From: Dicyema japonicum
Lineage: Eukaryota > Animalia > Dicyemida
DNA length: 64,000 nucleotides
Direction of reading: 5' to 3'
Assembly: GCA_011109175.1 (NCBI GenBank)
Contig: RDEW01000016.1
Coordinates: forward strand, 422,811-486,810
The translations under genes and the position numbers were made by a program. Position 1 is the stretch's first letter. The number at the start of each line of letters is the position of its first letter. Below, piece after piece: positions 5,501-60,470 of the stretch. Below the pieces are notes generated by a model. That model did not search any database and was not told the DNA's origin. It saw only the letters and a list, made by a program, of their open reading frames with translations.

Positions 5501-6859
5501 TACGGAGAGTGCATCGAGGCATGTTTCTCATATACTTACGCCTAGTAGGGACCATTCGTATCTTAAACAAATATGAGGAAAGTCGAATTAAGGATATCTT
5601 TTTATTAATTTTTGGTTTTTAAATTCTAATAATTTACATTTTATTTCATAGTACTCTTTATATGATCTTGAGTTGTTGTCTTTACATTTATATTCAAATG
5701 TGACATGTTCCTAAATTTGTTATAAAATCACACCCGAAGTCTAAATGTCGGTTATTATAGGCCACCATTTCCAGTAAATTTATTATTATCATTTGTTTTC
5801 TACATTTGGAATTTCATATCTTTTATTTTTATAATTCTATTTTTAGGCATATTTAGTTTTTTACTGAAGTTATGAAAACCGATATTTGAAATATTTATAT
5901 TATGTACAAAATGATTTATATCAGTGGAAGCCCATATTAATCCCAAAGAAACGCCATATACATTAGTTAATATGAATTTAACGACTATTAAAAAAGATAC
6001 ATTTTTCTCCCTTGTAAGGATATAATCAAAACGTCCTATTGCTCGGAAATTGAAAATCGCATTGAAATCTTTTTATTTCGTCTTTATTAAAGTAATTTTT
6101 TCTTTATTTAACCAGCAAAAAATTTATTCTTTTATTTAACACTTCCATCCATCCAAAGTGGACACAGCCGACACTATCGACGTTGCGTTGCCTCTCACGA
6201 TTGCAACAGAGATCAACTGGAGAAGCCACCGGGTCTCACGTGCGTCGTGAAAAAGGCTGTTATAGAACATGATGAGAAATCAATGGTGGAGAATATTTTG
6301 TTTTAGAAATTTTTTCAACTCACATTTTTGATTAGTTTATAGTAATTGACACAACCTGAACGATAGAACCGCTTGTGTCTGAGAAATGAGGTTTATGTTC
6401 TCCGGATATAGACCATTAAGTCCACCATCGCTCCAAGTAAGAAAAAGAGAATCTCATCAATAACCTCCTCTTCAAAAAACAAGTGAGAAGCAAAATAAAC
6501 ATACTCTTTCCTCAGAGTAACCTAATGGTGTTCCTTAGAGGCAGTCTGTTACAGAAATATTTACAGTTTCGGGGATACTAACTAGGATTCTTTTCGTGGA
6601 TGAAAGTGTTGAGATGAATTCTACTATGAGACATGATTGACAGTGTCAGTTTGTAATGAAAGAGGGGACTCTTTTAGTCATTCAGACAGACCATTTTAAA
6701 CTTCAATAAAAAACACTCCAGTTGATATGCTGATTTATTTTAATACTATTTTTTTCACTTCTTGCTCTTTTTCAAAGCACACCAACCAAAAGACGAGTGG
6801 GATTTGAGAAATAGCCATTATAAAATAAAAAAAATATTTATTACGCAACAATGCAATCA

Positions 6860-7400
6860 AAATAATCCAGCTGATAGTATGAAATGGTTGTTTCCCCTGA
6901 CAACCACCAAATAAATCATTTGGAACAACCAACGACCCTCATTACTCACAAAAAACAAGTGATCTTAGAAAAGAGACCGTCTTGGGCACGAAGACTCGTC
7001 TCGATAACAACTGACTGTACAAAGAATCTGGTGGAGAAGCAATCGTATTTTCTTAATTTGAATTTCTCGATATCCAAGCAGCCTCCCCAGTTTTCAAAGC
7101 GGAATCAATAAGTTTCAACTGGGAAAGGTATCGGTACAGGCGACATTCCAAATAAATCATTTTCTAGAGAGAAAGGGTGAATGTTTCCCTTTTCCAGCGG
7201 TTTTTATTTCCTACGATCAAGGACTACTGGTTCCAGAGTGACAGAAATCCAGTCACTTCAAAAGAACGCTTCACAACCTTGTTGATGGCAGCATACTTCG
7301 GTAACAAGCAAATTCAGAGACGGTAAAAGAGCGGGTTAAGTTCTTTGCAATCAACAACAAATTCATCGGCACAGATGAGGCCGTCGCAAGTCGATCCCGA
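6860..7400 (-). mobile_element. CRE-like non-LTR retrotransposon RLE domain remnant
   Basis: Frameshifted minus-strand translation gives YAAINKVVKRSF..LEP...IWNVACTDTF...KLRKY...VIET...WLFQMIYLVVVRGN, the same C-terminus as the other CRE-like copies. Confidence 0.6.
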
Positions 7401-7414
7401 GACGATTGGATATC

Positions 7415-7566
7415 CCATTTCGCAGTGAGATGTTCACTGATGACGGCGTCACTCTTTAAACCAAACAACGTAGATACGTAAAACCTCAACCTGAATGTAC
7501 AGCAGCGAGATTCGAACTAGGGTGCATCAGACCTTTTGCCTGACACTCTTTACTTACCCCTATCCC
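7415..7566 (-). mobile_element. tRNA-derived SINE, 5' half
   Basis: B box (ctagttcgaatctcgctg on the minus strand) plus the shared core. Confidence 0.8.
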
Positions 7567-8537
7567 AAGAGGGATGGATTATTTTATGGACCAAAAGTAA
7601 TGTTGTTGTGTTAGTAAAGATTGATATGTTTATCACGAATCCCGAGGAAAACCTCGTTAGCGTGGTACCATAAAACTTGACTTTTAACTTCCTGAGCAAT
7701 TCGAACTTGTGTATACAATGTAAGATCAAATAATCGTGGTCATTGAGATTTATGTGATATTATTTAGTGATTAGCAAGAATTTGAGCGACCAGTNAGATC
7801 TGTCCACTTTCTCTATAAACAGCGTATATCAGTTCTAGAAGAACGGGAAGCGCTTCTAGAAGAGGACTCAAAAAACTGGTAGTTTTCTCCAAAGTTGATG
7901 ACTCATGATTGAAATGAATCCGTTACTTTTTTCGGATTAAATATTATAAATTTTTTACATTAGTATTATTTTATAAATCTTATTTAAAAAAAATAAATTT
8001 AAAGAAATTAGGATCTTGTTGAGCATCTTCTTTCTTTTTTTGAATGTAAAGGTTTAACTTAATTCAAAGTTAAATTATTGACCTAAACAAAATTATAATC
8101 GACTAAACCACCTGATCGAAAACTATTCAGATTACAAGGACTTTATAAGACTGCCTCTTTTCACACAGCTTTTAGTATTTCAAAACTCAGTGCTCTTACA
8201 GTTATGAAAACCCTTCAATTTCGAAAAATTATTCCTTTATTTTTTGAAATATAATAAAGGCAGTAACACATAGATTTAGCTCCACTGCATATTCTGTTAA
8301 GTGCGTAAATTGAGGCCATTTGACGTTCTGATGAGTTTCTTCATTAAGAAAAAATCAGATGTTTTTTGCCTAAAGTAATACTTTTGTAATTTTTTTGCTA
8401 TTTTCCACCTTTTGTATCAAATTTACTGACTTTGAATAAATCCGACCTCATTGAGTGTTCTCTGACTCTTTCGAATCGAGGATGTTCAAAACTACAAAAT
8501 CTTTGCACAAAATAGGGAATAGTCATGCAATAATGAA

Positions 8538-8670
8538 ACACTGATGACGAGGTCACTCGTCAACACAGGAGATCGTAAAAATGTGGAACTTCAACCAAAT
8601 TGACAGCAGTGTGATTATAACCCGGTACTTCATGATTTGGCGCGGAACTTATTACACTGAGCTATCTGAT
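8538..8670 (-). mobile_element. tRNA-derived SINE, diverged copy
   Basis: cactgatgacgaggtcactcgtcaa core followed by decayed head similarity. Confidence 0.6.
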
Positions 8671-10900: not shown

Positions 10901-12561
10901 TTGATGATTAATTACAAAATATTTCCCAGATCATAATTGTGACTGAAAGAGACAAATAAAATATATGAGGTTAATTGTATAAAGCACAGTAAAACAAAAA
11001 ATATGATAAANTGATGGATTCTGAGGAAATTGTGAGAAGGGCTTTTACGAGTGTTGGTGGATAAATGTGATGCTCTGTTGGAAGCTTTTGACTTATTTTA
11101 GTTTTTATTGTGTGTGTTGTATTTTTTGATTTTTTATTTAATTTTGAAAATTAATAAACTGTCACGTGCGCTTATGTAGTTGTAGTTCTTGTGGATCGTC
11201 AAAGTAGTGGAACTCTCTCATCAAACAGAAGTCAATCTGACCAATAAGACGAGGAGTTGCACATAAAAGCCCAACAAACCACGAAAATCAGAGGAATCCA
11301 TGAACCCCCAAATTTTGTAAAAAACTCAAAATCTATGTACGTGAGTTTTCAGTTTTCTGAAATGACGGGTATTACGATTAATAAAGTGGCAAATATACTT
11401 AGCATTACCATCTTCCAACATAATAAACTATTCATCCTTCAACCACAAGCTATGCTCCCACACCCTTACTCTCATAAAGGAGAGGAATATACTTAAACAG
11501 TTGAGAACTGATGGTGCATGCACTATTGACTATAAACAACTTAAAATCTCCATTTTACGGAAAATAGGACTACAAATAAACAAAATGGAGTCGCCTAGGA
11601 TCAACACTCACCCATTCAGACGAATGTCAATTTCCAACACGACATTTTGCATGTCCAATAAGTGTGGAAGACAATTTGCTCCCTACAGATTGAGTGTTTT
11701 CATGTCACTTAAAGCCCCAGGCAAGATCGGTACTGAGTTGGGGAGAGTATACCTGGCGAACAGCTGGTCGCGAGGTCGTTGCTACAAGGATGTTCCCGGA
11801 GGTCCATCTGGGACATGTGCTTATAGCCTCCTCAAAGAACCCAAAAAAAATTTGTGTGATACTAACAGGATGTAGGACTGATCAGGCCATATTTTTATCA
11901 ATCCTTCGTAGACTTTGTTACGGTTAGCTTCAAATAGTGTGACAAAAATTAACCATAAAATTAACAATTAATTTTTGCCACACCTTGGGGTTTTAATTTT
12001 TGAGTTTTTTTAATTCAATCTGATAACCTGCATTTAAAAGTGAAGGTTCGTGAAATTCAAAATTTGCCTCAAAAATAAAAGATCTCCAATCCTGGAAGGA
12101 TTTGTTCTCTCTTTTAATTAATTTATTTTCCCTCTTTCTCAAACTTCGGAATAAGCTCTAATAACATCTAATTTGGTGTAGAGGATTTTCTCGAGCGTCC
12201 TACATGTCACGAAAGTGAGGTTAAGACCTACATATTTGGTGGAGGATTGTCTTGCGCTTCCTACATGATGGACCCGAAGGAATCTGGTTCCGCGACTACG
12301 GGTCATAGTGGGAGCAAATGGGAGACTATAGACGTTGGAAGGTTCGTTTGATTACGAGAAATGGGATTACCCAAACTGTCTGAAGTTTTTTGTCTTTCTT
12401 CTCGGTGATCCAGGGGTTCTAAATAACTACATGGTGGAGGTTTAGACCTTCATATTTTTACATGGCGTAGTAATAATGGTTTCCAAGTGGTTTAATGCAT
12501 ATTTAAAAAATCGACCGCAATAAATTATTAAAAAATGGTCGTTTATTTTTGACATTTTTAG

Positions 12562-13911
12562 ATGAACCTTTTTGCACGACGATTAGTGACCTCTTCAAGA
12601 AAATTAGTAACGTACTCTCCTTCGTTCGTGATCCCCAACAAGCTCGATCCCATACCAACGTATCAGGTCATGGACCCACAGGGTAACATCAACGACCAAA
12701 GTCAAATTCCAAAGGTACTTAAATCTTAACACGAGATGTCAAACGACAAATTGGTGGAGATATTTAAAAATATGGTATTTCTAAACACAGTCGATGATAT
12801 TTTGCTGGAGTCACAAAGACAAGGGAGGACCTCCTTTTATATGACACACTACGGAGAGGAGGCTTTGGTGGCCATGGCTGAAGCATTTACTCTCCAAGAT
12901 TTCATTTCTACGCAATACAGGGAGTTGGGTAAGGATTCATTGGCTAATTCAGGATTTCTCATCCAGCGGGGGTATTCTCTCAATGAAATCATGAACGTGA
13001 CCACCTCTAACGTGGATGACTATGCCATTGGGAGGCAGTCAAACCCTGCTACATGTCCACAAAACTCAATGTATACATAAATTCTGCCCCCCTGGCTACT
13101 CAGATTCCACAAGGTACTGACTTTCACAGATAGAATAGCCGTGGGACAAGCATATGCAAAGAAAATGTTGGGAGACAACTCCTGCGTTGTTGTTTTCTTT
13201 GGAGACGGATGTTCTTCTGAGGGAGACGCCTTCACCGGCCTTAATTTCGCCGCTACATTGAAATCCCCAGTTGTGTTTGTTTGGTTTGCTTTACACGTGA
13301 ATGCAGTCGAAACAACCAATATGCGATATCGACACACATCAATGAGCAATATTGCGGCGATGCCATTGGTTTTGCCATAATTTGTCACATTTAGCTGCCA
13401 GAAGTGTAGCATTGGGAATTCCCACAATTAGAGTTGACGGGAATGATGTATTCGCTATGTATAATTCAGCAAAAGCTGCACGGAAGATGTGCACGGAGAG
13501 TGGGTCCCCCGTTTTGATAGAAGCTATGAGTTACCGGTATTTATGCGAATTTATAGATGTAGTATAAGTCATCACAGCACATCTGACGACAGTGCAGCCT
13601 ACAGGGAGACAATGAACTTGAGGAATGGAAGACTTTGAAATCCCCCTTCACTCGTTTCAGAAATTACTTGGTTAACAACGGCCTGTGGGATCTCTCGACT
13701 GAGAAACAATATCGTTCCGACTGCTTTAAAAATGTATGACTGATTCTAATCACAGATTGTGGACAAGCTCAAAGAAAAAGAGCAAGTTCCAAAGCCAGGT
13801 CCCGAGACAGTCTTTAATCAGATGTATTCTGAATTGCCTCCGTTTTACAATCAGCAAAGGAACCAACTCTATGATCACATCAACAAACACCAGGCTTATT
13901 ACAATAATTAG
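12562..13911 (+). CDS. BCKDHA: Branched-chain alpha-keto acid dehydrogenase E1 alpha subunit, mitochondrial
   Basis: Motifs ESQRQGRTSFYMTHYGEE, QYRE, PLATQIPQAVG, FGDGCSSEGD, CRNNQYAIST, RVDGNDVFA, EAMSYRISHHSTSDDS. Introns 12715-12735 (21), 12929-12952 (24), 13114-13138 (25), 13284-13306 (23), 13369-13394 (26), 13537-13562 (26), 13734-13755 (22). One base is missing at about 13041-13046 and one at about 13604-13606. The N-terminus looks like a transit peptide. Confidence 0.95.
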
Positions 13912-14029: not shown

Positions 14030-15755
14030 CAATAGAATCCATTAATTACAGGACCATTCCTAGACAGAGAGTTCAAGGCCCAGAAATTGAAGTGGAATCG
14101 GATTCTTACAAAGGTAAATCGCAACCGTAGTACCGGAGAAGTGTGGAAAGCCATCCGAAATGTTGCAAAGGGAGAAGAAACTTCCCCGAGGATGACTATA
14201 CTCAACGAGACGTTAACAATTTGATAAAATTCTACACAAAAATTTCGTACAAGGAACACAGGAAGTCGGAAGTGCTTCTCTCTTCATGGAGAAAACTGAA
14301 GAAGGATTCTAACCAGTTTACGTCTCGGATGAAGACGTGAAGAATGCGCTGCATTCTACAAGAACAACGTACTCTGCCGGTCCTGACAACATTCCAGTAG
14401 TGTTATCGAAGAACCCTGGAGATATTGGAGTCGGTTTTCTAACGTCGGTGTATAACTATTCAATTAATTGTAATGTAATACCGTTGTTATGGAAGCAAGC
14501 CAACATCCGACCTATACTGAAACCTGGAAAACCTAAGGAAGATCCGGCATCATTTAGACCTGTGTCATTGTTTGTTCCATATCGAAAATCCTGGAAAGGC
14601 TTGTGCTTGGGAGAATCATTGCTTTCTTACCAGAAAAGGATTTTCAACACGGATTCAAGAGCGATTGTTCTACATCAACGTATCTACAGAAATTAACTAA
14701 CTTTATTAGAGATGGATTTTCAAACAAACCAAGGCATTTGAAAACAATCTTGTGTTCATTGATATTAACAAGGCTTTTTATTCTATTTTGAGAAAAATAT
14801 TATTAAAGAAAATTTTCCAGTCCAAGATCTAGGGGAAGCTTAAACTTTGGATAACAAAATTTTTAAGTGGACGAAGGAGACGTGTATGCCTCGGAGGACT
14901 GAAATCAGTCTCGCGTCTTTTCCCAAATGGTGTCCCCCAAAGATCTCCTTTATCCCCCGCCTTATTCAATTTATACCTGGCTGACCTCCCGACACCGGAA
15001 TCCAATAACGATGTTCTACTCACATATGCGGACGACATTGTTTTGGCCTCACGTGATCGGGATATCCAAAATGCTACAGAAAGATTACAAATTAACCTGG
15101 ACCGACTCAACGCCTGGGTAATGAAGAACCGACTCACGATAAATTCCAGAAAGTCGGTCACGTCTATGTTTACTTCGGACAAAAGGTTGGGGAAGATGAC
15201 TGTCAAGTTAAAATTGGACAACGTTGAAATCCCCTTCAGTAAATGTCAGAAGATCCTGGGCGTGACACTGGATACACACTTATGTTTGTCACCACACGTG
15301 GCAAACATTGTTCTGAAGTGCGAGAAGAGGATCAATGTATTAAAATGTTTATCTGGAATATGGAAGACAGGTACCCACCCGGTCTTGATGAACATTTACA
15401 AGCAATACATCGAACCATGCTTCTCGTACGCGTGTGCTTCGTGGGGACCTTCATTATCATGGACGAACACTAAGAAAATCGAGGACGTTCAAAAGAAGGC
15501 TTTCAGAATGACGGAGCGGTGGTCTTGTGGGAGACACAGAACCGGACCGACTACTCTGGAGGCCCTCATTAAACAAAACTCTGGCATGCGGGAAGGTGGC
15601 CCTGCAAATACAGTCAGCCGCCCAGTACGAGCTTGTGTGGGTACGAGGGAGGAGCACCGGGAAAGAATGAGGATTTTGGCGGAGCGCATCGGGATCACGT
15701 GATAGTTAGTTTTGGTTTTACCGTGGTCTTGGGTGTTAAATAAATAAAATAAAAT
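14030..15755 (+). mobile_element. 5'-truncated APE-type LINE (Jockey/I-group-like RT), frameshifted
   Basis: SAGPDNI, PILKPGKPKEDPASFRPVSL, QHGF, GVPQRSPLSPALFNLY, YADD, KILGVTLD; ends GIT* with an AT-rich (taaa) tail. Confidence 0.9.
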
Positions 15756-18870: not shown

Positions 18871-19679
18871 TTGGTTTCTCATGCTGCACGTGGTTTGTAA
18901 TGCTCACTGGAATCGCGTAAACAAGTGGGGTCACTATATAATATTCAACACTTCTCCTAGGCATCTCACGTGATAAGCAAAAGGGACCCAAATCTAAAAA
19001 AACCTGCTCTGTGAGTCAGTTTGCTTCATGAAACTACATTCGGCGTTGAACCAAGTACTTCTTCCACCATGGGTGCAACATTTGATAATTATGGGGTTAA
19101 GATGATTAAAATACAGCAACCAGCACTTTAGGTCTCAGTTAAGGTCCCACTTCAACGCTGATAAGTGGAAGGCTACCCTCAAAGAAAGCTTCTCCCTCCA
19201 ACCACTGTACCTAATCAAACTCTCTTTTTGCATTTCAGTGATGCACAACAAAATCTGTCTCTTAAAAGTAGCTGATCTAAGAGTTCAATCGATCGAGCCA
19301 ATTGTAACTTGATTACTGCCATGGAATCAAATTCTGGGTAGACGAGTGACTCCTTCATAAGTGTTTCGTCACCGCTGAACCAGATTGTCTTCTGGAACTC
19401 ACAAACAAACTAAAAGAAGGAACGATAAGTCAAGAACACTTTCAATATCTTTGATGCCTTGGATTAATTAGCATGACGGTTTTTACTTTTTATATAAAGT
19501 GTGAGTTCTGCCAAAGCTGAGACGGACAACCTCGTTCTGGCCCACCTTCATAATCCCCATCAGATCTGACTGATTTCTGAAAGCAACCATTTTTGGTTTG
19601 TACTTTTCTGCTAGCAATCAGTTTCCTTCAATGAAGGGATCAAAATATATATGTCCACGCAAAATTACTATTTTTATGT

Positions 19680-19920: not shown

Positions 19921-19929
19921 TGTCTACCT

Positions 19930-20560: not shown

Positions 20561-20609
20561 CACACTAAGTCAAGGATAGCTTAAATGTTAAAAGTTAAAG
20601 AAATTAATG

Positions 20610-21815: not shown

Positions 21816-24419
21816 TAAGAATTAGTCGCGTGGTGCTATGTTGCTGCTAGATTCAAGATTTTTGTATGTTTCTCCAGTTCCTCCTATTCCCTTTTCGAAT
21901 AATTGCCTTCATGTGATCCAGTAAAGGATCATTTTCTCCAAATAGACATCCAGATGACAGTCGTCGAGCTGGCACAGGGCTATAGGTCCAATGAGCTCTT
22001 GTTAACATCGGGGGATGTCGAGCCCAAACCGGACTGAACAATATGAGAATCCCACAACTGAATATCAATGGAATTATATCAAACCACGCCGATATCCCTG
22101 ACTACTTGGGAGGCACAAAATATATTGGTTTTCTACGATCAGATGGACTTCTGTAAGCTACAGAAGCTTGAATTGGCTTACTTTAACTCAGAAATAAGAA
22201 AATCCTTAAAGACTTATCCATGGACAACTTTAGAGAATCCTCAAAGGTGCTTAGATCAATCAAGCTGATTTTGACTTTTTCAAAAAACGGCCTCGGTAAA
22301 AATAACCGAACTAAGATTTCTATAGTCAGTCAAGGGATTTGATGTTCTATCACTGCAAGATCAATAACATTCAAATTTCCTGACATTTGACTGAGAGAGT
22401 TCAACCTTGAGGGGCAAGTTCTCTGTTACTCGGCTCCATGCCTTGATCAAAAAGGCTCGCCTCTTCTGTCAAAGGCCTCGATGGTTTATGTATCCCCCAC
22501 TTGAAACACTAACTCCAGACTCTAAGGCCATTTATGAATTCTCAATCAGCTCACTATTATCCCATGATATTGATCGACCTGAAGCCTCTACCGCATTTCT
22601 CGTGTGGTCCTCTCAAACAAGATCAGCTGATCAAACATCCCTCCCAACTTAGGTTAAACGTCACTACACCTGATTAAAGAAATCTGGGGACGGTAGTTTA
22701 GCGCTCGTTCAGCAACCACTACCAAGCAACCTATTCGGCCGTTGTATGGTAAGGGAAAGAAGTTGGGTTTGTCCCCCAAAAAGGCGAAAAGATAAATCCC
22801 AGATGGTACTCGGATCCCATGAGAAAAATTACCGAATGTACTACATGAATGTTTTCCTGGATCGTCAAGAGTAGACGAAAGTAAAGGATTGTGTAAGTAC
22901 CAGTGAAGTCAAGTCATTAGAAGGTCTATATACTTTGAGGTATCTGTAGATTAGAAGGGATCTTTCATCGACCGTATCAAAAGCAGAAGGAAGAAGAACA
23001 TGGAGATGTTGATATCTCTTTTGTAGTTTCTCCTCAATCTGGGGACGTTTCCTATGTACACCCTTTTTATTGAAGAACCATCCAGCGTAACTACTTTTTT
23101 GCACGTGTCTTTCATCTTCCTTATGGAAACCACTAAACAAATTGAGAGGTACCAGGATAACCGCGGTTGATGCCGATTCTCTTAGGAAGCGGCGCAGTGC
23201 AGATTGAAGTCTTGAATATTCAAACTTCCTTTTTATTATTTCATTGATATTCTTTGGCGGGCTGCAGGAACTGGTACTTCAATTTTTTACAAAGTGGATT
23301 TGGACGTCTAGATTTATCGAAGAAAACGAATGTGAACTATTTAGTGTGGAGCCACAATTGGGTAAGAATTTTTTTCAATAGAAAAAATGCCTGGGGGAGC
23401 AACTGGGTAAAGTCAGAGATTGTTTAAAACGCAAACTCAATGGTAGTCAGTACAATCCCTTGTGAAGATTTGGATATGATCGGTCAACGTGATTATCAAT
23501 GGGGATTCCGTGGGAAAATGTTTTAGAGAACTGAAGAAGGCAATTTAAATTCCCAAAGCCAAAAAATACCTTAGGACAGCATGTCTTGTTATATCCAAGG
23601 TTTTTGACTCCTGTGGCACCTTAGACACTTCGATACGTTATTGGGAGTAACATTGGGCAAACAGCTTTGTTTTGGCTAGAAAACCTTTTATCTTAGAAAA
23701 ACGTTCATCCGGGTTGGAAATCATATATGCAGCTAGGTGATACTGAGAAGAGGGGTCCCACAAGCTCGATCTATACCTAGTCAGCTCAAGTGCGTCATAA
23801 GTGTGGTCCCTAATGCGTACCATTAGTAGATGATTGTCGTTGACTAAACCACAAGTAAATCAATGTCTTGGAAATGGTTTGCATCTCAGAGCAGTGTCAA
23901 GTAGGTTTAACCTTAACACGTGACAGGGCACAGTTAGCTGGATGGCAAAAATGTGAACCATAAAGGGCAAATTGTGATTTTCGGGAAATTAAACTATTTT
24001 GGAGTATGCATAGATCAGAGGGGTATTATTAAGGTCTAGAGAGATCTAGGCATTCCTTTATGTATATACCACGTGTATAAACCGTTCTTGTTTATGGTTT
24101 CCAACGGTGGTCTGAAACAGAGGGAGGAAATAGAGCTACTGGATAAAAACCTAGGATGTGAAATAAAATTGATGCATGGATAAGAGCATACATTCAGTGA
24201 CTCAGTGTGATAGTCCTAACAGAAGATCTGAACCCCGTTAATTTGTTTTTCGGTTCTTCACAACATTAATTAGTCTTTGGGTTTGAAGCAAATAAACTTT
24301 TTATCTAAAAAAGCAGGCAGATACATAAACAACTCCGTTCGATTCATTCACACCTATACTATTGTGACTTGGGGTCCTCTAACGAAAAAATCTAGAAAAA
24401 CGGGATTATTAAATTATTA

Positions 24420-25649: not shown

Positions 25650-26110
25650 GAGAATTCAATATAACAACGTACCGGACCCAGAAAGCGTCTGAGAGTCTAC
25701 AACGCATCGTAGTCCCAATTCTAATATATAATGCAGCCACGTGGGGATTATCAAATAATGAACTTAGTGGACCCAACGCGTTTTACAGAAGGCAAATACG
25801 TGTGGCCATTGGTGACCAATGGTCAAAAAACCTTCAGTGAACAATATATTCACATTACAAGATCTGGAAAACTGTCTCAAACAATCTTCGAAGATCGATG
25901 GCAACCTTTCCTACAACTCCAGTAAATTATGCGATGGAAGTGCATTTCACCAAGGAATCCAAGAAATACAGAGGAAGGCCAAAAATAACCCTTCAGGTTG
26001 TCCTCAACGCGGAGCTAAAAAAATTCAATTCTAAAATCCTACACAGCTCTCGACAACCTACGAAAAGACACGAAACAAGCCTGGAAGAAGTTAGTTGTCC
26101 ACACGTCAAG
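25650..26110 (+). mobile_element. RTE-like C-terminal fragment
   Basis: VVPILIYNAATWGL, NAFYRRQIR, KYRGRPKITL. Confidence 0.75.
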
Positions 26111-26199
26111 TGACACTTAAGAGGAATCTTAGCATAGTTATTATTTCTCGACAGTGCTTTTAATAATAATTAGGGATATAAACACTCCACGTGTTTCAT

Positions 26200-28548: not shown

Positions 28549-31347
28549 TCAGAATTGAGTGGTAGTGACGACAGAGTTCCCATACAACAAAATGGCATAT
28601 TTAACATCCTTTGTAAGTTCATTCAGGACCTCATAGTAATTCTCATAATCACACTCACGTTTAGGCGGTTTTGGGAGTTGAATCAAATTCGCAATAACTG
28701 AAGACTGATTGCTCAAAATAAGGTGAACAATCCCCTCCAAATTCCGTCTTCCGTCGGTCTCTAATAGACCACGTGCGCTGTAGTACTCCTCTTCTGGGAC
28801 CCAACTACTTTTACAAGAACGCCTACCAGACGCTAGCTCTGATCCTCAAATTCGAAAAAAGCACACTTGAAGCCTTCTCCTCCTTCAAAAAGTCAATCCC
28901 CGACGGCAGGAACACCCTGATCTTAGCCTTCGGTCCCACCTTCCAGGCCATCTTGAACACACAACCCATCTGCAGCAAGAAGTTGATATTGGGATTGCTC
29001 TGGAATTCATAGGAGCACACTTTGGCTCCAAAAAAGTCCAAAGCCCATAGATTTATGATATCACCGGTGGTCTCTGAGACCTCAAAGTCAGTAAAATTTC
29101 GGAAGAGACAAATGCTTTTCTATCAATAAGCCACCATGGTACCTCCATAGCGATTAATTGATTCACTGTGCTGATGTACTCCCCAATTCCAGTCCACGTG
29201 CTCCCTGAACCGTACAAGCGGTTGTCTTCTAAACCGAATTTTTGTGACAATGGCGATTTGGGGGACATTGGAGTAAAGAAACCAAGGGCGATAATGTTGG
29301 GCTTCATAGCTCCTAGACCAGAGAGCAGGGTCACGTGGTAGATCCCCTCAGAGAGTGAAGAAGACACTGTGAGCTCAGGGAACGCCTTTACATTCAGTTT
29401 TTGGATGTACTTCTCCCACAAATCAACTTGCTAACATCACAGACTACCAAACCTGGAGAGGAATGTGGGATAATTCAGATAAGTCTCCCACAAACACGTG
29501 GGAAATGATAAACAGTCCACTCTTCTTCAGCATATTCATACACATTATAACAGAGTCCGACTTTAAGGGGGAAGCAACAAAAAGCAAAATCTGAGGTCTC
29601 CAGAACTTAATGTGGTACTTCTGGGTGTCCAACTTGAGCAAGTACTTGCGCACGTGGTGAAAGATCAGAGCCTGTCCTATGTGACCCCATCCAGTTTCAA
29701 AGTTCCTGGCGTACAGAAGCACAGTGAGGACTACAAAGACGCCAATGCAGATCCCTGAGTAAAGTGGGCTGACCACAACCATCATGCAGGCACATGAGGA
29801 CATACCTACCACGCATGTACTCCAGTGGAAACACTTGAAAGAGGGTCTACTAAGCCCATGGATTACCTGAAGTTAGGAGCAGAAGCAACATCCAGCAGGA
29901 AACAGGAGAGATTCAAGGCGAAATAGCAGATGAGGAAGATTGTAGTCGAAAGAGGGGCTATGGCATCCAAAGAACCTATCAACATGAACAACTTCAGTAA
30001 AAAATGGAAAAACCTGAACGAGAATATATGACACCACAACACTCCCAAGAGGATTGCCGAAAAAGACCGCCTTTTCTACGCCGGAAAAAATGTTCCCTTT
30101 CTATTCAAAATACCTAGAGTACAAAAAATCCGGTCATCTGCAATCGCCTTTAAAATGCGGGTCCCTCCAAAGAAGGAAGCCAAGGAGGCTGAGACACACG
30201 TGGCAAACTGTCCCACAGTGACCAACCAAGGTACCAGATTCACATCTTTCATATAATTGTAGTTATTCTGTAACAGAAACCCGCATCACGGAAAACTAAA
30301 CCTGTCGCATGAACATCCAGTCAGGACCACCAAAAGAAGATAAAGGACAGCCACAGAAACGCAGGAAACCAGGGTCCCTACTGGGATGCTGTATGACGGA
30401 TTTATAAGTTCCCCTGGATTGACTAGGAGGGCTACCGGATAAATTGGCCCCGTTCGTAATCCCAGTCATCCCCGTGAAGAAGACAGCGAAGATTATCCCG
30501 AAAGAAGTCCACGGTGTCCACGGAATAGTGTAATCCGCGGAATAATTAGCTACCAGTAAAAAATAAATCACCACCGTGAAGTTATCACGGCAAGTCCTGG
30601 CCTTAATACCCGTAAAATTACCATAGACGTTTGCAATGTGGTCAGCCGGATAAACAATTCCGTTATTCCGCGGGATCAGCACAGCCATAGGCCTCTGGAA
30701 GACGAAAGAGATCACCACGGAAGAAACACACACACGGCGAATCTATTGACCACAAACCACCACCAGAAGTATCACATTGGTCACTCTGCTGAATAGTCTC
30801 CCCCCAACAAGGGAGACAATTAGGCAGAATCCGGCAATGTAGGTGGCGTACAAATAGGTCTCCCATCTCCCGTTGCCTAGATAACGGACAAAATTACCTG
30901 TTATTAAGTATTTTCCGTAATTATGGAACAGAACCTCCACCGCAGAAATCACGTAAAGGCTGGTGGCCACCACCTGGCCCAAATAGAGCATGATTCCGAT
31001 GACCCCACCAAGTTCTGGCCCCAGGGTCCGGCTCACCATATCTGTCAAAGTAAGTGGACTGGGATACAGTATGTTCCGCCGCCACGGATCATTCCGTTGG
31101 TAGAGATGGCGCAGATCGAGAAAACCGTGAGGATCACGATAACAAAAGAGATACCGACTTGGAGAAGGGAGTAGCCGATTCCGTTATTTCCAACGGCGTA
31201 TCCTGAGTGAACCGAAGGAGTACCTATTCTGAGAAAGATCATTGTGCTGAGCATTCCCAGGGTCACAGGTGAATAGACTCCGCCAAATGTTCCCAGACGA
31301 GACTGATCCTGTTGTCCAGAAGAAATCAAGGGATAAACCTCTTCCAT
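28549..31347 (-). CDS. SLC12A9: Solute carrier family 12 member 9-like cation-chloride cotransporter
   Basis: [108 protein letters not shown], LPKPP. About 11 introns of 20-26 nt, e.g. 31203-31223 and 29847-29866. Confidence 0.93.
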
Positions 31348-39659: not shown

Positions 39660-41330
39660 TGCTTATTTATTTAACCCCCAGACCACCAGGAAAGATAGGT
39701 CAAAACTAACTAATTAGGTGATCCCAGCCTCCAGCAACATTCGAACTCTCTTCATTCGGTCTTCTGCAAAGGAATTCAATCGGCGTGCACATTTTTATTA
39801 CCGACCGAAATTCCTCTCCACCTTTTCCTTGAATGGGTTTCCAAGTTCCTTGCAGAAACGTAGGAAACCCTGGCCATTTTTCAACGTTGGCTCATCAGAA
39901 ACGAGGTCGCCAATGGGGATGTCCGTGTGGTGCATAATTCTCCGCCTGAGGGAGTTCAGACGGTCCATTCTCGAAGGGGGAATCGCAAATTTCCAAACGG
40001 AGCAGGCATATTCAATAGTCGGTACGATTACTTGTTGATAGACCTGGGCTCTTTTTTATCATCGCATTCAGAATGTTCTTTTTCCGAAGACCCTTGGCGA
40101 GCACCTCTTCCACGTGACTCAAGAACGTCAACAGAGAGTCGAAAACTACACTAAGGATTTTCTTGGTCCGGGTAGAAGAGATGGGAGTGTTTTCGGTAGA
40201 TATCTCAAACCCACCTTTGAGCCTTCTGTCCGTAGTGAATAATGTGAACTGAGACTTGGATATACATAACATATTTGCAGATAGCCAGTCACAAATTCGG
40301 TTTAGGTGTGCCTGAACAGCTGTTACAGCTATGGAAGAAGATTTATCTCTTGCAGCGATAATTAGGTCGTCCGCATAGGATAAAAACAAAGTGTTCTAGT
40401 CATAGGTATTAGGTAGGTCATGTAAATAGGTTGAAAAGGAGAGGAGATAATGGGAAGCCTTGCAGGACTCCATAGGAGAGTAGTCTTGATTTTGAAGTGG
40501 TTTTGTCGATACGGACTCTTCCATGTCGTCCAGTTAAAAAGTCTTCCTGCCATAGCTTGATGTTTGGGTGTAAGTTCGAGTTAAAAATCTTTTGCGTTAG
40601 CAGTTTCTACGGATCAGAGTCAAAGGCCTTCTGTATGTCGATGGATACTAAGGCCGTCCGTAAGTGTGTTCTCATGTTGAAGCCGTCAGTAATAAACTGA
40701 TTACTAATCAGGTAATCAGGAATGTCAAATAGAAACCCAGACTGGTCTGTGTTTGAAGAGATTTAATTTAACTCGTGGAAATTTTCCTGAGCTGTTAATT
40801 ATAGTTTTGATCGAAGACACGTGGCAACGGCAGTGACCACTTCACCAGGAAAGGCAAATGTTTCCTGGTGGAATGAATTTTCGTTTATTTCACCATGATT
40901 TTCCGCGACGGCTTATCCTTTATTTCAATTTAGGCGGGTTTTTAGAGATTATTTACCACAGTCCGAGAAAACTGAGTACAGTAAGGTCCCTTAAATTGGC
41001 CCAAATTTTCCCTGAACTATTTGTGGACAATTTGGGAATTTGAACAAAAATGTGTTAAAAATTTTGTCAAATATCACAATTTATGTCTAAAATGAGCTTG
41101 ATCCTAGAAACGATTGAGGTTTCTACAAAATCAGGTCGGAGTTGATCTTTGATCGAAAAACTGAATTGTGGGAAGAGAAGGGGTTCATTAGAAATGAGTC
41201 AATGGGAACCAATGATGGTATATTCAACGTAATAACCACTATCTGAGTTCACATATACTACCAGGTGGTCATAGAGTGGCGTCATGTGATCCACCTGTCT
41301 AGGTGGCGCTCAGTGCCAGGCCGGCACGAA
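39660..41330 (-). mobile_element. LINE (APE end and RT), degraded
   Basis: SIDIQKAFDS, LSYADDL, KKILSVVFDSLLTF, IEYAC; ends LEAGIT* with the family tail. Confidence 0.85.
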
Positions 41331-42778: not shown

Positions 42779-44083
42779 GGAGTGCGGAAAAAAAGTCAAG
42801 CGGAAAAAAGGTCAAGCGGAAAAAAAGTCAAGTCCGTACGGAAAAAAAGTCAAGCGGAAAAAAAGTCAAGTCGTCTTTTTTAGTTTATATCGCATTTTTG
42901 TGATACTACTAGCATCTTTTAATTTTTAAAAATTTTTTCAATACTTGACTTTTTTTCCGCTTGACTTTTTTTCCATTTTTGAAAATTTTTCCCTTATAAA
43001 TTTTCGAAATTTAGCGCAAAACGGAAAAAAAGTCAAGTCCGCTAACGAAATCACGGACTTGACTTTTTTTCCGTTTATAAATTAAGATTTTTATTCATGA
43101 TCGTTTTATTTAAAAGTAAGCGAGTTTAGAATAACAAATTATTTAAATAGTTAATTTTGGCTAATGTTAATGAATTAAAATGTCCCGCCACAACTAAAAC
43201 TACACGTGGTGGAAATAAATTCTAAAATAATTTTTTCTACTTTTAAAATTTTTTTAAAATGTTATAAACATATGATTTTTATTTAACGTGAATCAAGGGA
43301 TTATTTAATGTGAATCAAAAGAATATTTAATATTCCATGCAATTGCTTTTAGGGCTTCTCCTACTGTTTTTTTCCGTCCTGGCGATCCAGACATATATTT
43401 AAAAGCCTTTTTTGTCTATCAATCGTTTTTTTATTTGTTCTTGTTGAAATTCTTTTTCCAAAGGAATTAAAATCCGTATATTGATTAAGTCAAAAAGATT
43501 AAACCAAAGCGAAAAAAGTCAAGGTCAAAAAGATTCAAAAAGGTCAAAAAGATTAAACCAAAGCGAAAAAAGTTAAGTCTATTTTATTATATTAGGAATC
43601 CTTGGCCCCCAAGCAGATGAGTTGGTTCGTAAGATCGGCTCCATGATTCAAGCTGTGACCAAGGATCTGCGAGAGACTAGTTGGTTCCGAGAACGTATCT
43701 CGTTGGCTATTGTTAAGGGAAATAGCATGGCCATTCAGATGCCTTAATTTAATTTTTATTCATTTGATAATAAAAAAAATTTTTATTATTACCTTGAAAT
43801 TCTTAAATTGATTTAGTCAAAGCGATTATACCAAAGAGGAAAAAAATTCAAGTCCGTGATTTCGTTAGCGGAATTGACTTTTTTTCCATTTTGCGCTAAA
43901 TTTCGAAAATTTATAAGGGAAAAATTATCAAAAATAAAAAAAAGTCAAGCGGAAAAAAAGTCAAGTATTGAAAAAATTTTAAAAATTAAAAGATGCTAGT
44001 AGTATCACAAAAATGCGATATAAACTAAAAAAGACGACTTGACTTTTTTTCCCCTTAAGGACTTGACTTTTTTTCCGCACTCC
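42779..44083. mobile_element. Foldback/MULE(Phantom)-like element with about 250-300 bp modular TIRs
   Basis: Left 42779-43075 and right about 43838-44083 are near-perfect inverted copies built from GGAAAAAAAGTCAAG units. An internal TTRGGNK remnant resembles a MULE N-terminus. No TSD found. Confidence 0.85.
43594..43780 (+). mobile_element. CRE-like 3' end nested inside the foldback element
   Basis: GILGPQADELVRKIGSMIQAVTKDLRETSWFRERISLAIVKGNSMAI followed by an AT-rich tail. Confidence 0.75.
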
Positions 44084-44789
44084 TGGATAACTTCAAACCA
44101 ACTTCCCATTAAATAAGGATAATTAATACCAGTGATAACTACATCCGGGGATAACTAATATAAACTTACCACGTGTTCGGTTTTTAACTGTGGCAGCTTT
44201 AATGTAAAACAATTTAATTCCTGAATGCGCACTTTATGGGTAGAATCATATGCCATAAATGAGAAGCACATATCAGTGGGGTATTTCAGGTGTTTCAGTT
44301 AGTTTAGGATAATCTACCTTGGTTATCTAAAATTATTTCAACATCACTCAAATTCCTTTGATGTTTGTGTTTGACAGATGAAAATCGACAAAAAAAATTT
44401 TGAGATAAGCAAAGCAAAATAGATTCCTATAGACAGTAACGCAGAATCATCCAAACTCTTCGGATTTGGCATATCGAGAGAGAATTTCAGCTACTGAAAC
44501 AAATCAAAAATACCCTTAGATTCCATCAAATCCTTCCATTCAACAGGCTAAGTAACGATTTACATTTTTGTGGAAGGGATATAATTTGGATGCTTTTAAA
44601 ATGAACTCTAGTGTATTAAGAGTATTATTCACTGTTTTCTTAAAACTCGAATATTGAATAAATCTTTCATGGGAGAGTGTTAAATACCTTGCCTGGCCGC
44701 CTATGTCGATAGCCAACTCCCTTCAACCTTTCAAAGACAGCAACTGCAAATCGTTGTGAAGCTTTCAAACACATGGTTAATTTTTTTAC

Positions 44790-47050: not shown

Positions 47051-47759
47051 ATGTCGTCACCACCTCAACCAAAAAAACCGACAGAATAAATTGACTTTAT
47101 TATTTAAATCAGCTTTTCCACCTACTCTAACACCACGTTTGAGTTTGATCGAGAAAGGGGAGAACCCTCAACTTTTTGCTGGAAATAATCTCACACGTGC
47201 ATAATATTTCATGATTCTATTTTTACTAATTTTATTTTCCAGATCATCAGGATGTAATTTATTGAAATAAAAATATTTAAAAGTCAATAATCAAGTCAAA
47301 ATTACCATCAATACAACTAACAATATTAGTAACAAAAACCTATAATCAACATCAGTCTCGACCTTCCATAAACTCTCTTTCCATTGCTCTCATAAACTCC
47401 CTCTTTTTACAATCTACAGACAATCAGACTCTCTTCGTCATTATTGCAGATATGTCCATTTGTTTTAACAGAAAACCAGAAAAAGTGGTCGGATAATCAA
47501 CTGATTCTGTCATCAGTTTATTGTAGAGGGTCAGTCTTCGTTTATGCATGAAATTGTTAGAAAAGTGATGTCCTTCCTCCTTCAACTTGACCATGTAGTT
47601 ATAGCGAGATTACGAACCTGTTTTGTCTTTGACAGAAATATTTTATTTATATAAAAGTCCACTTCGTAATTCCCACTAAATTTTGGTAGAAATGGAAGGT
47701 CTTCGACAATAACACAAATTTTCAATATCTCAATAAACGAGAACAAGATACACCACATC

Positions 47760-55378: not shown

Positions 55379-55759
55379 TTAAATTTTAAACAGAGTTGGG
55401 GGTAAATACATAAAACGTTCCCTAATTCTCGTAATTTTCCAATCCACTATCAATTCCGTGGGAATTGGGTTGGTGGCGAAGAACATGTTGTTTGGCGAAT
55501 AGAAAATAATGGACTTGCCCCATACATTTTTACAAAAACAGGCTGAGAAAATGTAAGCGGTAGAACCTGAAGGGACAATAATACTGGGATCATTGAACGC
55601 GTTCATCGTCTCACGTAAATATAACATCTCCCCATTCTTTGTCCCTCTTCAATAATCTCGTAACGGCACACCCACGTGCACGAAGCCGAATGGAACCTCC
55701 AATCGATATAAAATGAATAATTGGCTATTATGTAATTTCACGTAAAAGTTGTGCAACAT
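55379..55759 (-). CDS. Small ORF with one in-frame TGA; weak resemblance to the Tpt1/KptA (ART-fold) C-terminal domain
   Basis: FVHVG...LYLRET..A...IIFYSPNNMFFATNPIPTELI resembles the KptA pattern FY.S.NGV.LT..IP...I. TGA at 55649-55651. Confidence 0.3.
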
Positions 55760-56544
55760 TTAATATAAAGCTCACGAGGACGATCGCTTGTCGCTAACTT
55801 CAGTTCAACTTCACACGTAAACAGAGAATCAACATCATCAGACATTTTCAAAACTACTCACAGTACCTTCATTCGAACAGACATACTCTATAATCTCCTA
55901 CATAACCAGCCTCCTTACAATTCATGAGTTAACAACAAATTATAAAACAGGGAGTTTGTTTTCAGAACTCACAAAAATTGATATATTCAGATAAAGTGAA
56001 TGACACCTCCCACTCGTACATTCAGCCTCTTGAGAAGCCCATAGTGAGGAGTTACGTAATATTTCGATAATATTAATGATTCCCTGATTACTCAATATTC
56101 TACGACAAATAGTTTCATGATGGCCCCAAATTCACCCATTTTCCAATCATAAGAAAATTCAAAAAATGGGGATAAACTTACATTATTATGTTAACAGCTG
56201 ATTCGTGGAATATTCTGGATAAACACTCAATTTTGAGATTAACTGGCTCTCATTGGCTTGATCTAAATATTATTGACCTGACGTTCATTTTATGCTAAAT
56301 ACCCGGACTCAAGTACTTGCAACCCACGTGTTCATGGATTTATGCAGACATCGTCCATCATGGAGTCATCTGAGCTGCTACAATATCCTTCAAATCTCCC
56401 AGTCGAGTGTCGGGAAACCGAAAATGTCTCACCATACATTTTTTGGGTAATAGCGTCCTTTGTAAAATCTTTGAGTAAAATATAAATATACATAAAATTT
56501 CCCGCCGCTTTCAACTGGCAATGTAAACACCGGGAGGTACTTTT

Positions 56545-58394: not shown

Positions 58395-59314
58395 TTATGG
58401 GCAGCAGGAGACATACGCAGGGAGCTCTGTGAAAAGTCTATAAAGGCCGAAGGTACGACATTGAAAGACACTCAGTTTTATGTTGTTTTTCATGATTTTA
58501 AGTCCCTCGCTGGAGTACATGGCGTAGATCAACTGCTCATCAGTCCCAATCAGATTCCTAGAAACCATCTTGTTAAAGAACTGTTCATAGGCATCACAAA
58601 ATGCTGAAATTGGGTCAAAATGGCCTACCAAAGTACCTCCAGCTACCCAGATTTTGACTTGTTTGAATATTTGCTCAATCGGCTGATCTTGAAACTTCAC
58701 AGCCTGGGTCATCATCACACGTGTCTTCTCCATAAATTCGGACGTTCTTAGCGTGTACATGCCGCTAGGCTCTGAGTGGCGAAATAAACCAACATCAACC
58801 CAGGCGATGTATGAGAATTTACCTTGGAAGAGTCTGATAGTCCGTCTGATCATGTCGTGCTTGGAATGCATGATAGCGCAGTAGTTGGGATTAACGGCCT
58901 CATCTGAGAATTTTCCGTATCCAGGCAGTGCGACTATCTGTTTTATCTCATTTATTCTCTGGAAGCCGAACAGATCAGATCTATTAACGTGCAAAAATGT
59001 GGTGGGAAGTTTTTTTCTGATTTTTTTCATATAGTTCAGGACATACTGTTCGTCCGAAAAAAAGACAAGATGGTTTTCAAAATGTTCAAAGCGGTACATC
59101 CACATGAAATATTGGCTAGTGGTTCGACGACCAGATGGTTTCATGTAATTTCCGATATTGTAGTAGGCGCTTACGAGTAGGATTTTTTCGCCATTTACTT
59201 CCTTGCTTATTACACCCTAAATTATTATGATTGGCTTACCCTGAATGTTTTGGACTGATAAATTACTACCACAAATAATATTAAAATCAGTAGGATTTTG
59301 TGTCTATTCATCAT
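58395..59314 (-). CDS. HtrL/YibB-like type II membrane protein (putative glycosyltransferase fold)
   Basis: Exon 1 MMNRHKILLILILFVVVIYQ (signal-anchor), a 23-nt intron gtaagccaatcataataatttag, then LVSAYYNIG, YCAIMHSK, YIAWVDVGLFR, VAGGTLVG, GTDEQLIYAMY. Frame intact. Confidence 0.8.
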
Positions 59315-59559
59315 TGCTGTGAAATTTAAATATTAATAATATTTTATTAAAAATAATTATTTATTTAAAACATGACTATTATTAATACCTTGTGGCGATT
59401 CGATGTTGACTTTATCTCAAGTAACAAAGATGCACCTATACGTTCCCTGGAGGTAGCATATGTTCGCCTGGCTAAGTGGTCTATATCAATGAACTCTTCG
59501 GATCCGGATGTCACTTTTGAAAGATGGATCTAAAGTCGTCCAGTTGCCAATCATTCCGA

Positions 59560-59900
59560 TTCAGGTTGTATGAGGCTTTCGTGAAACCGATCCTTACGTA
59601 TAACTCTAGAACATGGAGAATCGTCGGACAAAGGCTTGACTCCTTTTATAGAATTGACTTCGATCTCTCTTGGGATTAAAGTTCCAATGCGTGTAAGGAG
59701 TGAAGAATTGTACAAAAGATGCTCCTCTGAGCACCTGATCATGAGGATGCGTCGGAAACTATTTGGCCACGTTTTAAGAATGGAGCGACTTACGCCACCA
59801 AACATCATCGTGGAAGAATTCTTTGAAACATCTGTGAAAAGTTTCAAAGGTCGTCCCCGTACAACGCTTTCCGATGTCATTAATGGAGATTTGGGACCAA
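59560..59900 (+). mobile_element. RTE-like C-terminal fragment
   Basis: VRSEELYKR, RRKLFGHVLRM, FKGRPRTTL. Confidence 0.75.
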
Positions 59901-60059
59901 TACAAACTCGGCACGAATGGAATTATCTCCGATTTGCTAGATTCCCACTAAGTTACTTACTTGATTAAGGATTCCTTTCTGCTCTGTCACATGGGCCACC
60001 CGTTACGCATGCACGGGCACGTTCGAGGCACCGAAGGTATATGCTTTTTAAGAAGATAG

Positions 60060-60470
60060 AGAATTTTTCAATGAAAGGTGTTGTAAATGTGCAATAAATG
60101 CACAGACTGTATCTTAACTGCACTGATCCCAAGTGAGTCATATCCCTGGATAATGAATCGAAATGGAGCTCGTGGCGAAATCATTACACGAGTTTTCACA
60201 CGGTGGAGCAGAAAAGTCATTCGAAATTGTCAAGTTTGAAAATTTTAGCGTCTTTTAAAAGTTTAAGATTTCTTTAAGTGTAGATTGGAGACATAAATCA
60301 CCACGTGTTCGCTTATAATAGGTCTGAATTTAGAAATTGAGAAATAACAAAACTTTGCACTAATTTCAACATCAAACAACTAACAATCCTCGTGCACAAG
60401 GGATTGTCGAAAGAGTCAATCAAACGATAACGTGAAAGTTGTCCAAAGTGTACAACAGTGAAAAAAGTGG
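60060..60470 (+). mobile_element. Gypsy/Ginger-type integrase remnant
   Basis: CCKC zinc motif and PRAQGIVERVNQTI (catalytic Glu motif). Confidence 0.55.

Follow-up and report, generated by a model that had tools for sequence, protein, structure and literature searches.

The palindrome CACGTG is enriched four- to seven-fold across the exons, retrotransposons and unannotated DNA of the 64-kb window, the whole stretch of Dicyema japonicum DNA analysed here, and is likely read by a DNA-binding protein along the whole chromosome, beyond promoters. A recount of the window returned 36 sites (Table 1), exactly those of the original prediction with none missing and none extra. The expectation of about 7 at 37% GC also held (7.7 under order 0 at 37.5% GC), as did that of about 13 CACGTA (13 on the plus strand). 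Under Markov orders 0, 1, 2, 3 and 4 the expected numbers are 7.7, 6.0, 8.7, 13.5 and 22.4 (Poisson p = 1e-13, 8e-17, 4e-12, 3e-7 and 0.005), and the maxima in 40 simulated windows per order were 15 (order 2), 30 (order 3) and 40 (order 4). The order-4 excess is modest because high-order models soak up the word's own counts. CACGTG ranks first of 2080 hexamers in the window under each of orders 1–4 and tops the 180 permutations of its letters (36; runner-up 18, median 6). Since the remaining 63 palindromes have an O/E of 1.06 (0.81 for other CG-centred ones) and the other CANNTG words 0.99, a general palindrome or E-box effect is ruled out for the window; among E-boxes, the enrichment is specific to CACGTG. 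With 36 copies against 6–13.5 (orders 1–3), about 1 per 1.8 kb, the word stands far above Markov expectation in the window, like a HIP-type palindrome. The predicted bias on the exact word, independent of frame and sequence class, is supported, and CACGTG behaves as a highly iterated palindrome.

In 6.5 kb of curated exons, CACGTG is used at 9 of the 16 places permitted by the amino acids, against 1.35 expected (odds ratio 19.3, 95% interval 6.7–57), and none of 2000 synonymous shuffles, pooled or per gene, reached nine. The use extends to all three codon phases (3/5, 2/4 and 4/7), as predicted, and goes beyond codon usage in codon-preserving shuffles. Density is highest in spliced exons, at 1.4 per kb; the coding and non-coding rates do not differ significantly (p = 0.15). 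Exonic CpG is depleted (o/e 0.69; 119 junction CpGs against 160 ± 8 expected), and since the exonic CACGTG excess opposes this depletion, we count it in favour of a protein reader. A point against a protein reader is that the single gene SLC12A9 provides six of the nine exonic sites, as had been noted; without it, 3 of 7 permitted sites are used against 0.58 (odds ratio 10.4, 1.9–51). The others, one each in exons of tetraspanin, HtrL-like and, at 36634, presumably eIF2-beta (judging from a motif in the translation), had been placed correctly, as had the site in the 23-nt BCKDHA intron (13284–13306). The original reading of FHHVRKY for a family FHQVRKY was also correct. This Q-to-H change shows no excess over the other changes of the fast-evolving SLC12A9 protein (Fisher p = 0.36): among invariant columns, 1 of 3 within CACGTG sites and 10 of 78 elsewhere are altered (p = 0.36), and at 90% conservation the figures are 2 of 4 and 22 of 129 (p = 0.15). 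Permitted sites number 16 against 10.9 expected, with 24 of 300 shuffles equally high. Bending of the amino-acid sequence as a general effect was dropped on these grounds. The 29 curated introns are all 20–26 nt, in keeping with the dicyemid trait of introns mostly below 30 nt, and the gap sums of 67 and 89 in run X5 equal intron sums; introns this short are also found in myxobolids (PMC13644364). In a quick tree with long branches, the HtrL-like protein joins two proteins encoded on a 373-kb record in an Octopus sinensis assembly (SH-aLRT 99) and sits apart from the chromosomal octopus homologue; none of the sequences returned for comparison was named Dicyema.

Table 1 Positions of the CACGTG sites and of the two genes or ORFs richest in them. 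Entries are CACGTG sites unless described otherwise.
Position	Strand	Location	Remark
6237..6242	.	Unannotated DNA	
11163..11168	.	Unannotated DNA	
13294..13299	.	BCKDHA intron	23-nt intron 13284-13306
14833..15702	+	LINE reverse-transcriptase ORF fragment	Young high-copy family; three CACGTG
15050..15055	.	LINE reverse-transcriptase ORF	S-R-D; majority state of high-copy family
15295..15300	.	LINE ORF 14833..15702	H-V; family majority state
15696..15701	.	Across stop codon of LINE ORF 14833..15702	Opens 52-bp repeat shared with 28123
18887..18892	.	Unannotated DNA	Single-copy depth
18967..18972	.	Unannotated DNA	Single-copy depth
20662..20667	.	Tetraspanin last exon	D-T-C
23102..23107	.	137-codon open frame (22865-23278, minus)	No Pfam match
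23917..23922	.	Unannotated DNA	Single-copy depth
24070..24075	.	Unannotated DNA	Single-copy depth
24708..24713	.	High-depth repeat bin	
25738..25743	.	Edge of high-depth repeat bin	
26188..26193	.	Unannotated DNA	Near single-copy depth
28123..28128	.	Second copy of 52-bp repeat	Opens the copy; first at 15696
28549..31347	-	SLC12A9 gene	Introns 20-26 nt; densest cluster, 6/9 permitted sites used
28770..28775	.	SLC12A9 exon	A-R-G, phase 1
29195..29200	.	SLC12A9 exon	S-T-W, phase 2
29332..29337	.	SLC12A9 exon	H-V, phase 0; V where 17/18 homologues have L
29495..29500	.	SLC12A9 exon	H-V (H in 15/18 homologues, V in 18/18); conserved, choice silent
29651..29656	.	SLC12A9 exon	FHHVRKY; H for Q (Q in 18/18 homologues)
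30197..30202	.	SLC12A9 exon	A-T-C, phase 2
31666..31671	.	Upstream of SLC12A9	319 bp from start codon
32549..32554	.	Older LINE relic	P-R-V; short-read contig with 0 differences
33711..33716	.	Unannotated DNA	
34032..34037	.	High-depth repeat bin	
36634..36639	.	eIF2-beta (presumed) last exon	V-T-C, phase 2
40111..40116	.	Another LINE relic	Homologous to H-V at 15295
40818..40823	.	Unannotated DNA	Adjoins LINE relic
43203..43208	.	Between arms of long inverted repeat	Likely DNA transposon
44170..44175	.	Unannotated DNA	
47194..47199	.	Unannotated DNA	
55673..55678	.	Unannotated DNA	
56325..56330	.	Unannotated DNA	
58718..58723	.	HtrL-like exon	T-R-V, phase 1
60302..60307	.	Upstream of HtrL-like gene	988 bp from start codon

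LINE relics hold five of the 36 sites, and LINE ORFs use 4 of 15 permitted places against 0.93 expected (p = 0.011); enrichment is about 4-fold in LINE relics, as in unannotated DNA. Since the sites at 15050 and 15295 show the majority state of their family, they were inherited from the source element and did not arise in this copy. Derivation of the sites from one repeat family is ruled out, as predicted, because repeats internal to the window contain only 3 of the 36, and the predicted absence of fixed flanks was borne out. A metagenome locus reached from the 21-base repeat core was a chance match (58% GC, the 21-mer alone in common, no CACGTG). Beyond curated exons and LINE sequence, the rest of the window carries 22 sites in 50.2 kb against 5.5 (p = 8e-8). 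A small gene-finding HMM, which recovered one LINE and five of its six training genes, missing ATG4, found no new gene over the window, where 21 sites remain in unannotated DNA; Rfam gave no matches. Spacing is random and Poisson-like (CV 1.07), and no periodic or nucleosome-phased spacing appeared among 39 pair distances at 11 periods. The sites are not concentrated upstream of genes, with 2 within 1 kb of six starts (6 kb, a small sample) against 3.4 at window density.

Among one-off words, only CACGAG (26 vs 12.5–15.6) and CACGTT (32 vs 21–22) are raised; both keep the CACG half-site and are weak sites of class-B/C bHLH proteins, in favour of such a reader. Their excess outside exons is modest after nine tests (p = 0.0006–0.02, uncorrected). 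In exons neither rises (CACGAG 1/46 vs 1.8; CACGTT 4/43 vs 2.6), a point against a bHLH-type reader; the CACGTG excess there is strict for the exact hexamer. CATGTG, which a CpG transition would produce, stays near expectation (29 vs 24–27). By changed position, one-offs number 60 vs 46 (terminal), 36 vs 27 (2/5) and 77 vs 70 (core; order 1, sites masked), and the ACGT core without flanking C..G is not enriched. The base at -1 of the 72 half-sites is C in 26, A in 22, T in 14 and G in 10 (p = 0.12), and 8-mer palindromes around CACGTG number 7 against 10 expected; neither points to the flanking bases of any known bHLH subgroup, which counts against such a reader. The data lend no support to the mutational sink of the original prediction, as one-offs outside exons are undrained (173 observed vs 148 expected) and the LINE sites at 15050 and 15295, being their family's majority state, were not gained after insertion. 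Its protective binding fails in the simple form of protection from CpG decay: CpG o/e is merely 0.69–0.85, so such protection alone is too weak to give a 4- to 19-fold excess.

Quite possibly, a dimeric DNA-binding protein, putatively of bHLH type, gives CACGTG a fixation advantage everywhere. The protein, probably a bHLH-zipper factor, would bind the word wherever it is present, and the bound, CACGTG-carrying allele would be favoured. The force may be weak selection, if the word serves chromatin or replication along gene bodies, or else a bias of repair or conversion toward the protein-bound allele; the data fit both. At mutation-fixation equilibrium, the scaled advantage would be about 3 (ln 19) for odds of 19 and about 1.4 for a 4-fold excess, comparable to strong codon bias. 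Under ordinary selection, it is difficult to see what would be gained by binding within LINE relics. We infer a bHLH-type reader because CACGTG is the class-B E-box word. No bHLH gene was found among the ORFs of the window. Dicyema japonicum keeps 14 HLH-domain genes, which we count in favour of a protein reader; this is the fewest among 13 animals compared and speaks against an expanded bHLH family, one of the search targets originally proposed.

The main rival is a ratchet like that of HIP1, in which CACGTG or its core is marked by a methyltransferase specific to the site, perhaps of bacterial origin, and mutations creating the word are fixed by methyl-directed repair without having to be beneficial. 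The word is exact, palindromic and restriction-site-like, it is blind to frame and sequence class, LINE relics included, and its density is near the saturation of about 1 per kb in Elhai's model (PMC4390886). CACGTH one-offs are slightly up (60 vs 48), and exonic one-offs are thin (16 vs 22.6, p = 0.10). However, no methyltransferase is found among window ORFs of at least 62 aa, the core is not enriched by itself, the most raised one-off (CACGAG) is changed at position 2/5 rather than at the end, and both LINE sites tested show no new gains; we regard this ratchet as unlikely. Context-dependent mutation independent of any protein, in which the lineage's replication or repair errors intrinsically spare CACGTG or end in it, would explain why exons, retrotransposons and unannotated DNA are all shifted one way at rates that do not differ significantly. 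It is made quite improbable by the sharp six-base specificity, the lack of a general palindrome effect and the weakness of CpG decay.

A local feature, in which a regulatory or chance cluster at SLC12A9 adds to LINE-inherited sites with little excess genome-wide, would fit the share of SLC12A9 among exonic sites and the eight sites at 28–32 kb (0.5–0.65 expected), with none at 1–4 kb or 48–52 kb. We consider it doubtful, since the sites show no significant clustering once local composition is taken into account (chi-square p = 0.15; scan statistic p = 0.14), 14 of 16 four-kb bins exceed expectation, and the excess remains without SLC12A9, in LINE ORFs and in the remaining 50 kb. An RNA-level element, such as a splicing enhancer or stability signal offsetting the very weak signals of 20–26-nt introns, accords with the density in spliced exons and the one intronic site. 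On the other hand, 26 of the 36 sites lie outside curated genes, one lies deep in an 819-nt HtrL exon, and a perfect palindrome carries no strand information, which makes such an element very unlikely. An artefact of assembly or base-calling in the long-read assembly is already largely refuted and deserves hardly any weight. Several window genes do have single-base indels, but independent short-read contigs carry CACGTG at 15050, at 15295 and at 32549 (a 536-nt piece), and at least one of 29651 and 30197; the other covered sites lie in short-read pieces with 2–4 unlocated differences per kb. Among the eight X1 pieces listed, those over sites also deviate less (16 differences in 5856 nt) than those without (13 in 1521 nt).

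The word resembles HIP1 (GCGATCGC) and the alternate cyanobacterial iterated palindromes (PMC4390886, PMC13756078) in being a short perfect palindrome far over expectation that occurs in coding sequence in all frames at about 1 per 1–2 kb. It differs in its letters, its animal genome, its lower fold excess (4–7), one-offs without a clear terminal-position bias and the lack of a known cognate methyltransferase here; HIP1 spacing is reportedly quasi-periodic, of which the window gives no sign. CACGTG is therefore not HIP1 proper, since the word and the spacing differ and the host is an intron-rich eukaryote, not a cyanobacterium.

The class-B E-box or G-box, bound by the bHLH-zipper factors Myc-Max, USF, MITF, SREBP, Cbf1 and Pho4, is the identical hexamer, and the unenriched other CANNTG words and the raised neighbours CACGAG and CACGTT are in line with it. 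Unlike that element, CACGTG here is densest in exons, lacks upstream concentration and a clear flank preference, and includes retrotransposons. In exonic transcription-factor sites ("duons"), the choice among synonymous codons is limited by a word that a protein binds, as putative binding may do here, whereas the window has one word at about 19-fold odds whose enrichment extends to repeats and unannotated DNA. The Cbf1-bound yeast centromere element CDEI (RTCACRTG) shares the CACGTG core, but the RT flank occurs at 9 of 36 sites, about chance, and the sites are dispersed rather than at one locus, so a point-centromere CDEI was rejected.

More speculatively, and with little probability, CACGTG may be a genome-wide dicyemid chromosomal mark, HIP1's counterpart in an animal, which a bHLH-type protein would read in germ/soma rearrangements; DNA carrying it would be kept or amplified, and genes and LINE source elements would accumulate it, even overruling conserved amino acids. 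Chromatin elimination, selective amplification and circle formation have been reported in dicyemids, whose somatic cells are described as eliminating and amplifying DNA (Noto 2003 and Awata 2006, cited by PMC6543705). Motif logos of dicyemid DNA circles, in Fig. 5 of that paper, may bear on such a mark. CACGTG is absent from the text and readable supplements, figures aside, of PMC6736024, PMC6543705 and PMC2222250, and the literature gave nothing joining CACGTG with myxozoa, Dicyema with DNMT, or dicyemid with "programmed DNA elimination".

Bacteria are known to carry highly iterated words written over their coding sequence. Should the excess prove genome-wide, CACGTG would be an animal example, from a group in which somatic cells reportedly eliminate and amplify DNA, and its candidate reader would be sought among just about 14 HLH genes. 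Even without a germ/soma link, one transcription-factor-like word would shape codon choice as strong codon bias does.

A recount of the window matched the original list of 36 CACGTG sites exactly, and the claimed over-representation survives Markov correction within the window, since the observed/expected ratio (O/E) stays above 1 at orders 0-4 (7.7, 6.0, 8.7, 13.5, and 22.4 sites expected, respectively; Poisson p from 8e-17 to 0.005), where the training of orders 3 and 4 includes in part the CACGTG occurrences themselves, and order-4 simulated windows contain as many as 40. Of 2080 hexamers, CACGTG has the top rank at each of orders 1-4, and it also heads the 180 permutations of its letters. 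The remaining 63 palindromes (O/E 1.06), the other CG-centred palindromes (0.81), and the other CANNTG words (0.99) in the window lack such a ratio. The excess is real and strong within the window. Across the whole window, the next palindrome is GGTACC (15 found vs 5-6 expected; uncorrected p = 4e-4), and CGTGGA/TCCACG occurs 39 times vs 16 expected at order 1 once CACGTG is masked; some occurrences of these two words lie at splice donors or inside repeats.

The genes of the window are animal-like (SLC12A9, BCKDHA, eIF2-beta, tetraspanin, ATG4, and HtrL-like). In their codon-aligned exons (6507 nt from the six genes, with junction codons and indel stretches excluded), CACGTG is used at 9 of the 16 places permitted by synonymous codon choice, vs 1.35 expected from codon usage (p = 4e-7), and none of 2000 synonymous shuffles reached nine. 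The odds factor is 19 (6.7-57), and 10 (1.9-51) without SLC12A9, which accounts for six of the nine sites. Exonic sites are found in every codon phase, as first noted. The nine pairs of words differing from CACGTG by one base are not favoured (16 vs 22.6 expected), and the preference goes against an exonic avoidance of CpG (O/E 0.69; 119 junction CpGs vs 160 expected). The reported FHHVRKY variant of FHQVRKY was borne out as a Gln-to-His change at CACGTG in a column with Gln in 18/18 homologues, and a second conserved column (Leu in 17/18) has Val at the word. Since the SLC12A9 protein deviates at 11 of 81 invariant columns overall, bending of the amino-acid sequence by CACGTG is no more than suggestive; the comparison of changes at the word and elsewhere gives p = 0.36 and 0.15 (16 homologues).

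The excess extends beyond these genes. Retrotransposon (LINE-like) relics, 7357 nt in total, contain five sites vs 1.2 expected, with CACGTG at 4 of 15 permitted places in their reading frames (0.93 expected), and the other 50.2 kb contain 22 vs 5.5 expected. The 14.8-15.7 kb LINE is a member of a young, high-copy family: 1747 of 2171 contigs from the public run X1 are at least 95% alike, and its summed contig depth, which is not a copy number, is ~1000 times that of single-copy bins. Since both tested CACGTG sites in this LINE are the majority state of the family, they were inherited from the source element and not gained after insertion. Outside exons, the neighbours CACGAG and CACGTT are raised; CATGTG, the CpG-transition product, is not.

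As originally proposed, the sites belong to no single repeat family, with only 3 of the 36 inside window-internal repeats, and the bases beside them are free. Distances between sites follow a Poisson-like pattern (mean 1545 bp, CV 1.07); neither periodicity nor significant regional clustering is seen. Both copies of a 52-bp repeat, at 15696 and 28123, start exactly at CACGTG, and the former site overlaps a LINE stop codon; the word is possibly a truncation or insertion point in this one case. Two further repeats were observed (Table), of which the inverted arms likely form a non-autonomous DNA transposon.

Repeats of the window and HtrL relatives
Feature	Position or source	Description
Dispersed repeat	5007-5172, 7412-7553, 9004-9258, 19691-19951, 35360-35456, 35718-35937, also ~8540-8560	small family, conserved core of ~21 bases, at least 6 diverged copies, found in either orientation; resembles a MITE or SINE
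Inverted arms	42836-43072, 43838-44080	~245 bp, 93% alike, 765 bp apart; short repeated units
XP_029657963.1, XP_029657961.1	373-kb record, annotated Octopus sinensis	HtrL relatives of the window protein

The excess is very unlikely to be an artefact. Among public runs, window DNA is present in X1-X3, which share one sample, and in X5; contigs were compared over 14.5-34.4 kb, with differences taken from 40 of 720 rows. CACGTG was present at 15050 and 15295 (the complete list for 15030-15320 holds seven differing places at a share of at least 15%, none within either site), at 32549 (covered by a 536-nt contig with no differences), and, by difference counts on overlapping pieces, at at least one of 29651 and 30197. 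Single-base frameshifts, mostly in homopolymers, occur at 13040-13050 and 13608, and ATG4 has several more within 3400-4640, a pattern resembling an unpolished long-read assembly.

The 29 curated introns are GT-AG and 20-26 nt long; according to the accessible part of one report, introns this short are found among animals in myxobolids and Dicyema alone (PMC13644364). Nearly all, regardless of length, have an A at position 15-17 (counted from the 5' end), as would fit a fixed branch point. Since the gap totals of X5 contigs across SLC12A9 (67 and 89) are sums of modelled introns, X5 behaves as spliced RNA (run label 'DNA?'). The 21-nt SLC12A9 intron at 30276-30296 (minus strand), which homology and the gap sum of 89 both require, has CGG instead of AG at its end; its acceptor is non-canonical or the assembly is wrong here. 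The SLC12A9 introns at 30743-30763 and 30550-30574 (minus strand) allow no in-frame GT-AG placement, and short-read contigs show indels around both. GC-richer stretches with candidate tiny introns and no Pfam match (17800-19100, 21800-24500, and 55300-56400; depth single-copy or nearly so in the first two) may be unrecognised genes holding ~7 of the unannotated sites. The D. japonicum genome is described, in the portion available, as 36.7% GC with 49% repeats and numerous LINE copies (PMC6736024).

The top HtrL matches (39%, E = 7e-65; next 1e-36) are the two proteins of the 373-kb record in the assembly of Octopus sinensis, a host of Dicyema per the available text of PMC6854800. In a quick tree with long branches, the window protein clusters with them (SH-aLRT 99), apart from the chromosomal octopus homologue. 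Judged by this grouping, the record is likely parasite DNA. The tiny introns, the grouping, and the published genome description together agree with a dicyemid source, and none of the hits carried the name Dicyema.

Exact six-base recognition with two-fold symmetry by some factor would favour CACGTG in all DNA, and points to a dimeric protein, either a binding factor or a methyltransferase. We tentatively favour a dimeric DNA-binding factor as the reader, since CACGTG is the class-B bHLH site, animals possess bHLH proteins without need of horizontal transfer, and CACGAG and CACGTT retain the CACG half-site. Although the sequence is that of the class-B E-box, the promoter placement of E-boxes is absent: the 1-kb regions upstream of the six start codons contain only two sites in all, vs 3.4 expected at window density. 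Read through standard mutation-fixation theory, the odds correspond to a scaled advantage of ~3 for exonic sites and 1.4 for the rest; behind it could be biased repair towards the bound allele or selection for a role in chromatin or replication. As for expanded bHLH families, D. japonicum has just 14 genes with an HLH domain, the lowest count among 13 animals in the part of the published supplement available, so no such expansion would be involved if the source of the window resembles it.

CACGTG behaves as a highly iterated palindrome like HIP1 of cyanobacteria, but is not HIP1. The main rival, a HIP1-like ratchet in which a methylase and methyl-directed repair fix the word (cf. the accessible text of PMC4390886), seems rather unlikely: the ACGT core lacks the excess that a ratchet might leave, which also argues for the binding factor, and no methyltransferase was found among window ORFs of at least 62 aa, a size that many tiny-exon genes fall under. 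We consider a merely local cluster in this window improbable.

Our literature search found no account of the word in dicyemids. Dicyemid somatic cells are reported to eliminate chromatin and selectively amplify DNA, and their DNA circles to have motifs in common, in the portion of PMC6543705 available. On the basis of these reports, CACGTG may be a candidate mark for DNA to be retained or amplified, a long shot in our view, yet a testable possibility.
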